A stretch of DNA of 64,000 nt from Escherichia coli (GCF_030013205.1 NZ_CP122648.1); one strand, 5' to 3'; counted from the stretch's first letter, positions 11,339-18,840 are shown. Program-made: numbers and translations. Notes: generated by a model from the sequence alone, not told the origin.

Positions 11339-11426
11339 GGTGAGGTGTCCGAGTGGCTGAAGGAGCACGCCTGGAAAGTGTGTATACGGCAACGTATCGG
11401 GGGTTCGAATCCCCCCCTCACCGCCA
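11339..11426 (+). tRNA. serW: tRNA-Ser (anticodon GGA)
   Basis: GGTGAGGTGTCCGAGTGGCTGAAGG...CCTGGAAAGTG...GGGTTCGAATCCCCCCCTCACCGCCA; long variable arm; anticodon loop CU-GGA-AA. Confidence 0.9.
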
Positions 11427-11588
11427 TATTCAAAGAAGAGCTCGTACGAAAGTAGGGGCTTTTTTTTCGCATATTGCACACACCGGGGGGATGAGAAGCC
11501 CCGACCGGGGTTCGACAACTGGCGCAGCCAGTTGGACAGACCACGAACACAGTGAGTGGGCTGCCCGCAGGGCGAGCGAAGCGAGTCA

Positions 11589-11611
11589 ATCCCCCCCTCA
11601 CCGCCATATTT
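11589..11611 (+). repeat. Direct repeat of the last ~23 nt of serW plus flanking TATT (aatccccccctcaccgccatatt)
   Basis: Near-identical copy of 11404-11430 located ~185 bp downstream; each copy is followed by a related A-rich/ctcgtacgaaagta segment. Confidence 0.8.
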
Positions 11612-11889: not shown

Positions 11890-14166
11890 TTAATGCGCTG
11901 CTTCCGCCTTGTGCTTTTGTGCACTCTGGAATCCGTAAGTCAGCTCATTTTTCTCTTTATCCAGCGCGACGGTGACCTGACCGCCGTCCACCAGCGAACC
12001 AAACAACAGTTCGTTGGCGAGCGGTTTTTTCAGGTTGTCCTGGATGACACGCGCCATCGGACGTGCGCCCATTGCCCGGTCGTAACCTTTCTCGGCTAGC
12101 CAGTTACGCGCTTCCTGGCTCACTTCCAGAGAAACACCTTTCTGATCCAACTGAACCTGCAACTCGACGATGAATTTATCCACTACCTGATGGATCACGT
12201 CGGTTGACAGATGATCGAACCAGATAATGTTGTCGAGACGGTTACGAAACTCCGGCGTAAAGATCTTCTTGATCTCTTCCATCGCATCGGTGCTGTTGTC
12301 CTGGTGGATAAGACCAATCGATTTACGCTCAGTTTCTCGTACCCCAGCGTTGGTGGTCATCACCAATACCACGTTACGGAAGTCCGCTTTGCGTCCGTTG
12401 TTATCGGTCAGCGTACCGTTGTCCATCACCTGCAACAGAATATTGAACACGTCCGGGTGCGCTTTCTCGATTTCGTCCAGCAGCAGCACCGCATGTGGAT
12501 GCTTGATGACCGCATCAGTCAGCAAACCGCCCTGATCAAAACCAACGTATCCCGGAGGCGCACCAATCAGACGGCTGACGGTATGGCGTTCCATATACTC
12601 GGACATATCAAAGCGCAGAAGCTCAATGCCCAAAGCTTTCGAAAGCTGTAGCGTCACCTCTGTTTTCCCGACCCCGGTAGGGCCGGCAAACAGGAACGAA
12701 CCGACCGGTTTATGTTCGTGACCTAAACCTGCACGCGCCATCTTAATGGCTTCAGTCAGCGCCTCGATGGCTTTATCCTGACCGAAGACCAGCATTTTCA
12801 GGCGATCGCCGAGGTTTTTCAGGGTATCGCGGTCACTCTGAGAAACACTCTTCTCTGGAATGCGCGCAATACGGGCCACCACGGACTCAATATCCGCCAC
12901 ATTAACGGTTTTCTTGCGTTTGCTTACCGGCATCAGGCGTGCGCGAGCGCCCGCTTCGTCGATAACGTCAATGGCTTTATCCGGCAGATGACGATCGTTA
13001 ATGTATTTCACCGCCAGCTCTACCGCTGCACGCACCGCTTTTGCGGTATAACGCACGTCGTGGTGCGCTTCATACTTCGGTTTCAGGCCATTGATGATTT
13101 GAACAGTTTCTTCGATCGACGGTTCAGTAATATCAATTTTCTGGAAGCGACGCGCCAGAGCACGGTCTTTCTCGAAAATGTTGCTGAACTCCTGATAGGT
13201 TGTCGAACCAATTACGCGAATTTTACCGCTGGAGAGCAACGGTTTGATTAGGTTAGCCGCATCGACCTGACCACCAGACGCTGCACCCGCACCGATAATG
13301 GTGTGGATCTCATCAATAAACAGGATGCTGTTAGTGTCCTGCTCCAGCTGCTTGAGCAACGCTTTAAAACGTTTTTCAAAGTCGCCGCGATATTTTGTGC
13401 CCGCTAACAGAGAACCGATATCGAGAGAGTAAATCGTACAGTCAGCCATCACTTCCGGCACATCGCCCTGAACAATTCGCCAGGCAAGACCTTCTGCAAT
13501 CGCGGTTTTACCGACACCAGATTCCCCCACCAGCAGCGGGTTGTTTTTACGGCGACGGCAGAGAACCTGAATAGCACGCTCCAGCTCCTTCTCACGACCA
13601 ATCAGTGGGTCGATTCCGCCCACGCGCGCAAGCTGATTCAGGTTCGTCGTGAAATTCTCCATACGTTCCTCCCCACCAGCTTGTTCTTCGCTGTTTGGCT
13701 GGCTGCCAGGATCAGAAGACTGTGTCGGCTCGTCTTTACGCGTGCCATGAGAGATAAAGTTCACCACATCGAGACGGCTGACTTCATGTTTACGCAACAG
13801 ATATGCCGCCTGCGACTCCTGTTCGCTAAAGATAGCGACCAGAACGTTTGCACCGGTAACCTCATTGCGACCGGAGGACTGGACATGGAAGACCGCACGT
13901 TGCAGTACACGCTGAAAACTCAGCGTCGGCTGTGTGTCGCGCTCCTCTTCACTGGCAGGCAGAACAGGTGTGGTTTGTTCAATAAAGGCTTCCAGTTCCT
14001 GACGGAGCGCAACCAAATCCACAGAACACGCTTCCAGCGCCTCCCGGGCAGATGGGTTACTGAGCAGCGCCAGTAACAAGTGCTCGACGGTCATAAACTC
14101 ATGACGGTGCTCGCGCGCTCTGGCGAAAGCCATATTTAAACTGAGTTCCAGTTCTTGATTGAGCAT
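11890..14166 (-). CDS. clpA: ATP-dependent Clp protease ATP-binding subunit ClpA
   Basis: 758 aa from [24 protein letters not shown]; two AAA+ modules ([16 protein letters not shown]). Confidence 0.95.
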
Positions 14167-14196
14167 AGGCACCTCCCCCAATTTTTATGCCTGCAT

Positions 14197-14517
14197 TCAG
14201 GCTTTTTCTAGCGTACACAGCAATGGATGCTCATTCTCCCTCGCGTACTTGTTCACCATCGCCACTTTGGTTTCTGCAACCTCGGCGGTAAAGACTCCGC
14301 AAATGGCCTTCCCCTGGTAGTGAACAGCGAGCATCAATTGCGTTGCACGTTCTACATCATAAGAAAAGAATTTTTGTAACACGTCAATAACAAACTCCAT
14401 CGGAGTGTAATCATCATTGACTAATATCACTTTATACATAGATGGCGGTTTTAGCGCGTCGCGAACTTTTTCTTCCGCCAGTTGATCAAAGTCCAGCCAG
14501 TCGTTCGTTTTACCCAT
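14197..14517 (-). CDS. clpS: ClpA adaptor protein ClpS
   Basis: 106 aa [51 protein letters not shown]... Confidence 0.95.
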
Positions 14518-14603
14518 TGTCAGTTATCATCTTCGGTTACGGTTATCGGCAGAACGCCCTGCCGCTGACAAGAGCTTATTTGCCTGACCAATCTACTCCA
14601 CAT

Positions 14604-14622
14604 GATAGATAACTATCATTTA
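14604..14622. repeat. Putative attL core (gatagataactatcattta)
   Basis: 17/19 identical to 25213-25231. Confidence 0.5.
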
Positions 14623-14691
14623 TATCATTTAGTTAATTAGTCTTTATTTTTCATTATGTTGCAAATAACAACCCCGTCAAAAACAGTGATA

Positions 14692-14714
14692 TTAACTACA
14701 CCATTAACTACACC
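14692..14714. promoter_or_regulatory. Putative integrase arm-type sites (ttaactacaccattaactacacc) followed by cgaacaa repeats
   Basis: Tandem 11-mer direct repeat; a near-identical copy lies at 25069-25091 just upstream of the int start. Confidence 0.45.
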
Positions 14715-15303
14715 GCTTCACGAACAATATCGAACAACCGCGAACAAAGATCAACACGCTTTAATCATTATCATTTTCCGGCTATCCGTCATGAAGCTGG
14801 TGGATGATCTGCGTGGTGATTTCCACCATTCAGAGCAGGGGCGGTCATCATGACCATGCCATAACAAAAACCCCATATTCGTGGTTTTTCTGTGTCGGGG
14901 CTATTCTGCTGTTGCCGTGCTGGTGGATATTCTCCGGTATGCGGCTCCCCATATCGGCATCAGGCCCACCAGCGTGAAGCGTTTTTCATTTTTCGCGGGT
15001 ATAAAAAATCGATGGGGCGGGCAGTCCTGAAGACGTCAGGGTACGGAGATTTGACCCGCCCCTCCCTGTGCATGAGCACAATAAGTAACCGAAGGCGGAA
15101 TTCCGCCCTCGGTACTTACATATGAGAAACGATATTTCTTCCACCGATACCCTTTATTTGGGTATTGCGAGTAAGCCCCAAAATCTGGGTGTTACTCTTA
15201 CTACCCAAACTACGGGTAGTTTCCGTAGTTTCATGGTCGAGTTGCAAATCTGCAACTCACCCACCAGCCAACGCAATTTTGCGTTATCGGGAATATCAGC
15301 AAG

Positions 15304-15591
15304 TTACCGCCGCAGTCGTTCCGGCTTCTTCCACTGGTAAGTATTTTTCGCGCTCTCCCTCCGTTGTTGAGAACGGCGACGGTATGCCAGCAACTCAAGG
15401 ACTCTGGTTCGTATGTTGCGCATATCCACGCCGTTAAGCTCAATACCATCACGGCGCATCACCTCAGCAACAACACGCGCGTAATTTTCAGCGGTGACTG
15501 TATCCGGCTGCGCGGCCTGTTCGTCAGCCAACTGGCTGATTCCACCAGCACAGCGGATTAATCGCAGTATTTCAGATTCGGTCATTATCAT
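15304..15591 (-). CDS. Hypothetical protein (95 aa), island packaging module
   Basis: ORF overlaps the terS-like stop by 4 nt; no recognisable motif. Confidence 0.45.
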   Translation of the reverse strand: MIMTESEILRLIRCAGGISQLADEQAAQPDTVTAENYARVVAEVMRRDGIELNGVDMRNIRTRVLELLAYRRRSQQRRESAKNTYQWKKPERLRR

Positions 15592-16073
15592 GCCTGTTTT
15601 GCGACCTCATTCACTACGTCATTTTTTACCATCCGGCTGATAATCTGATTACACAAATCGTCAATAATTGACTGCACTCTGTTTACTGCCATCGGTTTAA
15701 GCCCGGCATCACGTGCCAGAATATTGGGGAGTTTTGCCAGTTCCTCGCTTACGATTTCCCCCCATATAGCCATCTCTTTTCGCACATCATCGGCGGGTAT
15801 GAGTTGCGCCGTTTCCTGTTCGAACTTGAGGCGTTCACGTTCGGACTGATACCAGGCCTTACGGTCTTGTGGCTCCATTTCTTCCAGTGATGCCGGAACG
15901 GGAAGATCAAGAAAACAGGTCAGAATGTCAGTCACCCGATAGAGTTTCAGCTTGTCATGCCCTCCGGCTGGCTGGATGTTTTTCAGCCTTGCCGCCGCAG
16001 TCTGACGACATATTCCCGCTATCGCCGCCAGTTGATTAATGTTCAGCATCAGATTTTTCAGTTCTCGATCCAT
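15588..16073 (-). CDS. Phage small terminase-like protein (Nu1-like HTH DNA-packaging protein)
   Basis: Start placed at MDRELKNLM (GGAGCGGGT SD); N-terminal HTH LNINQLAAIAGICRQTAAARL; layout resembles lambda Nu1. Confidence 0.55.
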   Translation of the reverse strand: MDRELKNLMLNINQLAAIAGICRQTAAARLKNIQPAGGHDKLKLYRVTDILTCFLDLPVPASLEEMEPQDRKAWYQSERERLKFEQETAQLIPADDVRKEMAIWGEIVSEELAKLPNILARDAGLKPMAVNRVQSIIDDLCNQIISRMVKNDVVNEVAKQA

Positions 16074-16226: not shown

Positions 16227-16306
16227 ATGAAAATGCAAAAACTAGCCTTTTTCCGCGCCGCTCCCGCCCCGTGGCAGACCACTCCACCGGGAGGACCCGT
16301 AAAAAA
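16227..16306. repeat. 80 bp conserved element, copy 1 (~92% identical to 18761-18840)
   Basis: atgaaaatgcaaaaac..ccgggaggacccgtaaaaaag; lies between the capsid terminator and terS. Confidence 0.8.
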
Positions 16307-18760: not shown

Positions 18761-18840
18761 ATGAAAATGCAAAAACCAGCCTTTTTCCGCGACGCTCCCG
18801 CCCCGTGGCAGGTCACTACACCGGGAGGACCCATAAAAAA
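18761..18840. repeat. 80 bp conserved element, copy 2
   Basis: ~92% identical to 16227-16306. Confidence 0.8.

Follow-up and report, generated by a model that had tools for sequence, protein, structure and literature searches.

What function resides in the gene-free, hairpin-rich DNA at the end of an island integrated in the chromosome of Escherichia coli? The region lies in a window of 64,000 nucleotides (nt) from NZ_CP122648.1 (the whole stretch of DNA analysed here), and the initial annotation, drawn up from the sequence, had described positions 14720-15300 as a non-coding stretch with four stem-loops at the island's left end, suggesting a packaging site (of the cohesive-end, cos, or pac type) next to a gene resembling terS (small terminase subunit, TerS), a structured RNA, or a decayed gene remnant. 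Our analysis indicates that the four hairpins are not one element, and that the region is probably a composite terminal region of a phage-inducible chromosomal island (PICI), in which a captured cos of the SfV phage class, the structured 3' end of an operon, Chi octamers, and the arms of the attachment site (attP) are combined.

That this is the left end of the island was confirmed by alignment with the empty K-12 site, which matches the window at 13930-14623 and 25212-27000 with an overlap of 21 bp; the resulting 21-bp att duplication occupies 14603-14623 and 25212-25232, and the excised island measures ~10,609 bp (10.6 kb). The region under study is the final 680 bp of the island, 14624-15303, 3' of its last gene. 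RefSeq annotates no gene there, nothing being annotated from clpS to a 282-bp hypothetical gene, and the open reading frames (ORFs) tested, three plus-strand ORFs of 65-77 amino acids (aa), have no Pfam match, in agreement with the earlier view that the stretch holds no convincing ORF. All four stem-loops are present, as judged by a repeat search and by the sequence itself.

The cos cassette and the lambda-type cos copies

The segment that carries the main finding is a short block of phage similarity that contains the first of the four hairpins:

14984-15066, minus strand: cos cassette of the SfI/SfV/SfII/ST64B/phiP27 class, 83 bp, identified by phage similarity
15014-15023, minus strand: cosN cohesive end, reading GGGGCGGGCA on the plus strand and TGCCCGCCCC on the minus strand

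In a sensitive search of 14650-15310 against 50,697 phage records, 14984-15066 was the sole match, with 90-94% identity to SfII, SfV, SfI, SfIV, ST64B, and 720R4 and 82% identity to phiP27; no other part of these phage genomes was matched. The phiP27 match covers the annotated cos-site of that phage, 15014-15023 being aligned with GGGGCGGGCG, and in SfV and SfI the cassette matches the ends of the linear records. The block is located immediately upstream of a P27-family terS gene in 720R4, SfII, and SfV, while a gene of the size of an HNH endonuclease stands immediately upstream of the block in SfI, ST64B, and phiP27; the orientation of the cassette on the minus strand of the island is that of the phage order, i.e., HNH, cos, and then terS. 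The cohesive end of SfI, determined by sequencing the ends of virion DNA, is 5'-TGCCCGCCCC-3', 10 nt in length (PMC3636060), and 15014-15023 is its exact reverse complement, with no second match in the window. In SfV-class phages, the site lies between the HNH gene and the P27-family terS/terL genes (terL, large terminase subunit, TerL); in the island, its neighbors are instead a gene for a 95-aa protein and att.

When seven island variants and four phages were aligned, the cassette appeared as a discrete block with 57 invariant columns, which include GGGGC-GG, CCCGCCCC, and TTTCGCGGG. Beyond 14984 and 15066, the flanks are common to the islands on the one hand and, with a different sequence, to the phages on the other, and the borders of the block are identical in all seven variants. 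Hairpin 1 lies within this block as an 8-nt inverted repeat with a 33-nt spacer (GGGGCGGG at 15014-15021 and CCCGCCCC at 15055-15062). The left arm is GGGGCTGG in five of the seven island variants, and the right arm shows no change to compensate; hairpin 1 is therefore not maintained as a base-paired stem and belongs to this cos as an intrinsic inverted repeat, whose two arms probably serve as recognition elements for protein instead of folding together. Altogether, the results point to 14984-15066 as a real packaging site, a helper-type cos in a PICI with predicted activity. The earlier guess of a cos or pac site thus holds for this cassette, hairpin 1 included, but not for hairpins 2 to 4. 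Potential helpers are common, since prophages with a P27-family terS gene and cos were found in 1108 of 5426 complete E. coli genomes.

The ground on which a packaging site had been proposed, the adjacent terS-like gene, did not survive inspection, as that gene belongs with a different class of cos:

15588-16073, minus strand: gene for a DUF1441 small terminase subunit of the lambdoid mEp460/606R10 type (PF07278; phrog_141, 'terminase small subunit')
16253-16273, minus strand: lambda/mEp460-type cosN-like core, CACGGGGCGGGAGCGGCGCGG, in a block of about 16236-16300, just upstream of terS
18787-18807, minus strand: second lambda-type cos core, in a block of about 18770-18832, upstream of the protease-capsid fusion gene

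The DUF1441 protein is 65-70% identical to TerS of mEp460, phi458, PhiR55_1, and 606R10, with TerS of Gifsy-2 and of some Stx2a phages as more distant kin; in all of these phages, TerS is encoded by the first gene after cos, ahead of a gpA-type TerL. The cos region of the phages with the cognate TerS reads ...CACGGGGCGGGAGCGGCGCGGAAAAAGG..., which resembles the lambda cosN sequence. This lambda-type cos is present twice in the island, with 92-97% identity over ~65 bp (0 expected by chance) and the core motif CACGGGGCGGGAGCG[G/T]CGCGG on the minus strand, and both copies are preceded by a hairpin and a T-run in the gene-sense direction. We also considered 14984-15066 as the cos cognate to this terS and rejected it, the cos regions of mEp460 and 606R10 sharing only chance words of 9-11 nt with the stretch. 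Because the TerS is of the mEp460/606R10/Gifsy-2 type, whose cos lies twice elsewhere in the island, it is, judging from these similarities, not cognate to the cassette at 14984-15066. The cos sites of the island thus number three, all in one orientation and belonging to two classes, and both its capsid fusion and its TerS are similar to their counterparts in 606R10-type phages.

Hairpins, Chi octamers, and att-proximal repeats

The remaining hairpins and the Chi octamers lie on either side of the cassette as follows:

15088-15113, minus strand: intrinsic-terminator-like hairpin (hairpin 2), with an 11-bp stem and an AAUU loop, followed by UACUUAUUGU
15141-15263, minus strand: conserved 123-bp hairpin module, with hairpins at 15207-15231, 15239-15258, 15169-15197, and 15146-15166
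15270-15285, minus strand: hairpin AACGCA-AAAU-UGCGUU, 19 nt past the stop codon, of a recurring xxGCA-N4-UGCxx type
14796-14803, plus strand: Chi octamer, GCTGGTGG
14919-14926, plus strand, and 14966-14973, minus strand: convergent Chi pair that adjoins the cos cassette
15261-15268, minus strand: Chi octamer between hairpin 4 and the hairpin at 15270-15285

The description of the stretch as hairpin-dense was borne out for 15070-15304, whose folding energy is -101.5 kcal/mol (z = -9.2) for the minus strand and -89.4 kcal/mol (z = -8.8) for the plus strand, values equalled in either case by 0 of 200 shuffles; stretches to the left of 15070 reach z-scores of only -1.6 to -3.7. Hairpin 2 is ACCGAAGGCGG-AATT-CCGCCCTCGGT at 15088-15113. 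Hairpin 3, AAACTACGG-N7-CCGTAGTTT, exists but is located at 15207-15231 and not at 15213-15237, and hairpin 4, GAGTTGCA-AATC-TGCAACTC, is likewise displaced, to 15239-15258 from 15243-15262. To these we add hairpins at 15270-15285, 15146-15166, 15169-15197, and 15125-15139.

Hairpin 2, read from 15113 to 15088 on the minus strand, which bears all genes of the island, is the only terminator-like site in 14500-15700. It has the GC-rich stem-loop, the U-run (albeit with a weak U-tract), and the position downstream of a gene that characterize Rho-independent terminators: its stem contains eight G-C pairs and one G.U pair, which on the plus strand is an A.C mismatch, its tail is TACTTATTGT, and it follows the stop codon of the last minus-strand gene by 190 nt. 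This putative terminator is conserved in related satellites, with the outer stem remodelled. The adjoining 123-bp module is present as 91-95% identical copies in satellites with three packaging modules, including those without the SfV-class cos; it therefore travels with the 3' end of the operon, not with cos.

Comparison of these copies bears on whether pairing is conserved in related islands. Loops change over kept stems (GAUU/GAUC; AAAUAAA/AAAUUUG/AUAUUUU), and one stem pair of the module changes from C-G to U-A, with the U.G intermediate also seen. RNAalifold, given 12 distinct sequences with a mean column identity of 93%, returned 69 pairs, 5 of them changed on both sides, the single changes being mostly G-C/G-U on the gene-sense strand; in the area of the 15270-15285 hairpin, pairs 19-36, 21-34, and 22-33 are changed on both sides in the L035/L022/L025 group of relatives. 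The gene-sense strand folds better by 6-14 kcal/mol in all 12 sequences. These patterns favor an RNA-level structure of the hairpin module, and a structured RNA, as initially suggested, is plausible for 15070-15304 within the limits of this covariation. No Rfam family was detected in 14600-15320 even at E = 10 with lax filters, the best score being 16 bits against cut-offs of 33-70, and an Rfam scan of 10000-36000 returned nothing in the stretch.

The octamer GCTGGTGG is the Chi sequence of E. coli, and RecBCD recognizes Chi when it approaches from the 3' side. Four such octamers lie within 473 bp (14796-15268), where 0.16 would be expected at the rate of the flanking chromosome (Poisson P about 2e-5); across the island there are 13 in 10.6 kb, in both orientations, versus 18 in the other 53 kb (31 in the window). 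The terminal regions of relatives contain 2.2 Chi per kb, and a convergent pair 47-55 bp apart next to a packaging cassette recurs in L032, L060, and L087; no Chi cluster was found in the phage cos regions examined. Counted from the cos cut, correctly oriented octamers are met at ~90 and ~215 bp to the left and at ~240 bp to the right (three of the four). This arrangement suggests that Chi could protect cos-cut ends or the tails of concatemers.

Between the cassette and the chromosome lie three further features:

14603-14623, no strand: attL core, 21 bp, duplicated at 25212-25232; left boundary of the island
14691-14747, no strand: putative integrase/excisionase arm repeats, ATTAACTACACC twice in tandem (14691-14714) and CGAACAA three times
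14848-14952, minus strand: 34-codon ORF fragment (...QKNHEYGVFVMAWS) with weak likeness to KilA-N, possibly a gene remnant

The three CGAACAA copies occupy 14721-14747 with a 10-bp period, CGAACAC occurs twice at the other end of the island, and relatives with other att types have other short tandem repeats at the same place; the repeats at 14691-14747 are most simply taken as putative arm sites for the integrase or excisionase. The KilA-N likeness of the ORF fragment amounts to 7 identical residues of 13 (E = 0.005 for a single comparison) and lends the former idea of a decayed gene remnant weak support, for 14848-14952 only. Positions 14843-14922 are 94% identical to a module of L063-type relatives. 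As a separate observation, a promoter-like site on the minus strand at 14653-14680 (TTGACG-16-CATAAT, 10/12) points outward across att toward clpS, and this candidate promoter could drive clpS-clpA after insertion.

Related satellites and rival explanations

The gene at which the stretch ends allows the region to be followed through other satellites:

15304-15591, minus strand: last gene, conserved in the satellite family (phrog_1561, 93-95 aa)

Relatives of the 95-aa protein were taken from a scan of viral contigs; a peptide scan of genome contigs gave no confirmed relative, and an AlphaFold2 model of the protein is all-helical with low confidence (predicted local distance difference test score, 64). 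The gene keeps its last position in a large family of satellites with at least three packaging modules, i.e., (i) a DUF1441 TerS with a capsid fusion, (ii) a capsid, a decoration protein, and another TerS, and (iii) the full set of the capsid-forming PICIs (cf-PICIs), comprising capsid, protease, portal, connectors, HNH, TerS, and TerL. Downstream of it, the DNA is mosaic across relatives. The SfV-class cassette is found with all three module types, while other relatives have, at the same position, either a segment that matches phage Fraca (HK97-like) at its right terminus and phage 640R1 in the spacer between HNH and terS, or one that matches the 156 bp directly preceding the terminase genes in Lys8385Vzw, a Stx-type phage. 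The slot therefore holds phage packaging-site segments independently of the satellite's own packaging genes. The L018 cluster and L008 have no such cassette; their similarity to the window stops exactly at the cos border, 15066, past which the sequence enters a truncated prophage terminase gene. Strong structure (z down to -10) is seen in the terminal regions of most relatives, which consist of recurring hairpin units with constant flanks and with stems that vary from copy to copy; relatives also hold fragments similar to roi, ant, and kilA genes. It is possible, though on balance doubtful, that the terminal region is in general a swappable packaging-and-survival slot, in which interchangeable SfV-, HK97-, or Stx-class sites would set or broaden the helper range whatever packaging genes the satellite itself has, convergent Chi pairs would shield the cut ends and the concatemers from RecBCD, and arrays of covarying hairpins, some of them antisense to roi/rha, would be functional RNAs and not spacers.

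Two further observations were made in these relatives. The sequences at L008:6700-7000, in the L018 cluster, and at the downstream ends of L087/L072 abut truncated packaging genes of lambdoid prophages (gpA terminase, portal), and those satellites appear to have integrated into, or recombined with, a prophage packaging module. In L063 (downstream 250-400), L042, and L062, tandem units of ~50 nt, taacccRttgatWttYtcgRaaa, a 5-6-bp stem with a triloop, and aRRtcgg, have stems that vary between copies (CCTCA, CCCCC, CCTGC, CAGCC) and constant flanks; in one unit, 53 bp match the antisense strand of VT2-Sakai roi with 90.6% identity, at the codons for RNPPMVVFEKINNLG.

The reading of 14984-15066 as a working cos has to be weighed against several observations. 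The island encodes neither an HNH endonuclease nor a P27-family TerS, and use of the SfV-class site would therefore depend wholly on another element. A G-to-T change inside the cohesive end (GGGGCTGGCA) is present in five of the seven variants and in 15 further satellites of IMG/VR (carriers among the relatives are L011, L015, L020, L025, L035, and L097-L111), and an IMG/VR scan found this variant in no phage: 15 of the 16 matches are satellites, never beside a phage terS or HNH gene, and the sixteenth is a chance occurrence in a high-GC coding region. It may thus be that the cassette is drifting or is used by something else than SfV-like phages, and selection on the cassette itself is not separable, because the island flanks are equally conserved. 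Taken further, the 83-bp block would be an inactive relic of recombination between a satellite and an SfV-like phage, with packaging only through the lambda-type cos and the DUF1441 TerS; such a history would fit the two lambda-type copies with their matching TerS, the predominance among satellites of an overhang not found in phages, and the other apparent phage-gene fragments close by. We regard it as unlikely, given that the copy in the window has the exact 10-nt end and both conserved flanks, and that the overhang change still leaves self-complementary ends. Moreover, the block borders fall where the phages' own conservation ends, which suggests that a functional unit was retained, and three different phage packaging-site segments in the same slot are hard to square with random debris.

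The hairpins and Chi octamers raise similar doubts. The U-tract of the terminator is poor (UACUUAUUGU), the consensus fold is little more stable on one strand than on the other (-69.8 versus -66.7 kcal/mol), the z-scores are equal on both strands, so that RNA and DNA structure are inseparable by this measure, and covariation is thin because of the 93% mean column identity. An enzyme entering from the cos end would meet the Chi at 14966-14973 in the wrong orientation, and the octamers lie inside recurring motifs that may have another role. That 15125-15285 acts as DNA, as cosB- or cosQ-like sites for the 95-aa protein or terminase or as single-strand initiation signals for the island primase, would account for palindromes that fold equally well on both strands, for the constant position of the region after the 95-aa gene, and for the short direct and inverted AAACTAC repeats with 9-bp spacing, and known E. 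coli PICIs do have an island-specific cosB (PMC6739421). The module, however, persists without this cos, is missing from many relatives with the same 95-aa gene, and lies on the side of cosN away from the start of packaging; its loops vary over kept stems, and on the gene-sense strand most single changes are compatible with G.U pairing. By sequence, no likeness to Rpp was seen in either island protein, as a comparison of the 95-aa and DUF1441 proteins with PDB chains, including RppC, gave no match below E = 0.1 (sequence only). A role at the DNA level is hence rather unlikely in our estimation. Still less do we expect the hairpin cluster to be a regulatory small RNA, derived from the 3' untranslated region or from its own transcript and perhaps interfering with helper or host expression: its strong fold (z = -9.2) ends in a terminator, some pairs are compensatory, and the tandem hairpin units of relatives are antisense to a conserved part of roi with differing stems and kept flanks, but no Rfam family emerged even at E = 10, 14700-15300 contains no promoter-like site, and the module in the window has no similarity to any phage gene. 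Finally, it is very improbable that the whole stretch is a decayed protein-coding gene. The 34-codon fragment at 14848-14952 resembles a KilA-N motif, and relatives hold roi-, ant-, and kilA-like fragments; against this, the KilA-like match spans only 13 residues, the plus-strand ORFs of 65-77 aa have no Pfam match, and most of the length is taken up by cos, the terminator, the Chi octamers, and the att arms.

Island setting, proposed packaging routes, and known satellites

The host setting was read from the RefSeq annotation of NZ_CP062865.1, which is 100% identical over the queried stretch. The chromosomal order is infA, tRNA-Ser, clpA, clpS, the minus-strand island genes, and then yljB and cspD, which places the insertion point of the PICI-type satellite between clpS and yljB/cspD. 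On the minus strand, the island encodes an integrase, a helix-turn-helix regulator, Icd-like proteins, DUF4222, a primase, a single-stranded DNA-binding protein, a ClpP-protease/major-capsid fusion, the DUF1441 protein, and, last, the 93-95-aa hypothetical protein. Integrase, AlpA-like regulator (its AlpA identity taken from annotation only), primase/replication genes, size (10-15 kb is typical), att repeats, and the lack of tail and lysis genes are those of a Gram-negative PICI, as is the presence of a helper packaging site and/or TerS, here represented by the DUF1441 TerS, two lambda-type cos, and one SfV-type cos.

Elsewhere in the window, the region 22258-23400 contains genes for Icd-like cell-division inhibitors, one intact and one shortened (L001 19109-20056). 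In P1, the c4 antisense RNA lies ahead of icd; near the Icd-like genes, the Rfam scan detected no RNA of the C4 type. At 11339-11606, tRNA-Ser (GGA; 11339-11426), the only hit of a tRNA/tmRNA search, is followed by an RtT-type repeat (RF00391, 47 bits) in an ordinary chromosomal context, and 25337-25737, overlapping cspD and its leader, gave a sub-threshold match to the cspA thermoregulator (41.7 bits versus a cut-off of 78). The segment 44001-46000 is very AT-rich (GC 0.31-0.34, versus ~50% GC elsewhere in the window) and is probably another acquired segment.

On the composite reading, the induced island would excise, replicate, and form concatemers, which could be packaged by two routes. In one, the TerL of a lambdoid helper and the island TerS would cut the lambda-type cos sites; in the other, the HNH, TerS, and TerL proteins of a resident or infecting SfV-class phage would cut 15014-15023, giving the island a second helper class besides the lambdoid phages to which its DUF1441 TerS, capsid-protease fusion, and lambda-type cos copies correspond. 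After the latter cut, packaging is predicted to proceed toward att and int, because the orientation fits both the HNH-cos-terS order of the phages and the two lambda-type cos. By arithmetic only, three island copies (31.8 kb) would amount to 77-91% of the 35-41-kb genomes of SfV-class phages. The hairpin run from 15285 down to 15125 and the terminator at 15113-15088 would end the minus-strand late operon, stopping transcription before cos, att, and the co-oriented host clpS-clpA genes, and the hairpin run probably stabilizes the 3' end of the message as well. RecBCD entering at either cos-cut end would meet an active Chi within ~90-240 bp, and the putative attP-arm repeats next to the att core would be the fourth kind of element.

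Helper-type cos sites are already established in PICIs and P4, including two of lambda type in EcCICFT073 and one of the HNH class in SaPIbov5. EcCICFT073 is an E. coli PICI with cos1/cos2 (Fillol-Salom et al. 2018, PMC6092414; 2019, PMC6739421). Like the present island, it is an integrase/AlpA/primase-type island of similar size that has more than one helper-like cos and needs a helper terminase, and the two lambda-type cos found here mirror its cos1/cos2 (PMC6092414). Unlike EcCICFT073, our island has an SfV-class cos (with a 10-nt end, of phages with HNH and P27-family TerS) in its terminal non-coding region, a DUF1441 TerS with a protease-capsid fusion, and no Rpp homologue by sequence. 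SaPIbov5, as cited in PMC6092414 and 10.1101/2022.09.08.507074, is a staphylococcal PICI with the cos of HNH-dependent phages; by these citing accounts, it likewise lacks a terminase for that site, carries the cognate cos of an HNH-dependent helper, and uses the TerS, TerL, and HNH of the helper, but it belongs to another phylum and has no sequence relation, and here the HNH-class cos is additional to lambda-type cos and TerS. The cf-PICIs (EcCIEDL933 type; 10.1101/2022.09.08.507074) share the backbone, the last gene, and the kind of terminal non-coding region, and some cf-type relatives carry the SfV-class cassette and the hairpin module; they differ in that the island in the window lacks portal, TerL, HNH, and connector genes and has only TerS and the protease-capsid fusion for packaging. 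With the cos of SfI, SfV, SfII, ST64B, and phiP27, the island copy has in common the 10-nt end, the inverted GGGGCGGG/CCCGCCCC pair, and the orientation relative to the packaging direction, but it is without flanking HNH and terS genes, and 83 bp is all that is shared.

In lambda, Chi acts only in the orientation set by the entry end at the cos cut, and Chi protects rolling-circle concatemers; wild-type lambda itself lacks Chi and uses Gam. The island resembles this system in having Chi near cos in orientations that fit entry from the cut ends, and differs in that a natural Chi cluster lies beside cos in a satellite, with a putative effect. Our literature search found no account of a second, unrelated cos class within one PICI, of cos placed in a terminal slot where relatives have different packaging-site segments of phages, or of Chi octamers clustered next to the cos of a satellite.

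PICIs and similar satellites mobilize virulence and defense genes, and their host and helper ranges are usually put down to their packaging genes. In the island described here, lambdoid packaging genes and cos sites are joined by a cos that precisely copies the one used by an unrelated, HNH-dependent class of phages, and roughly one in five complete E. coli genomes has an SfV-class prophage. With Chi octamers clustered next to cos, a satellite that has no obvious RecBCD inhibitor may have a simple means of protecting its linear DNA. If the sites are active, one satellite would ride several helper classes, and its helper range could change by the swapping of an 80-180-bp cassette, with consequences for how gene flow is predicted and for how PICI-based delivery vehicles are designed.

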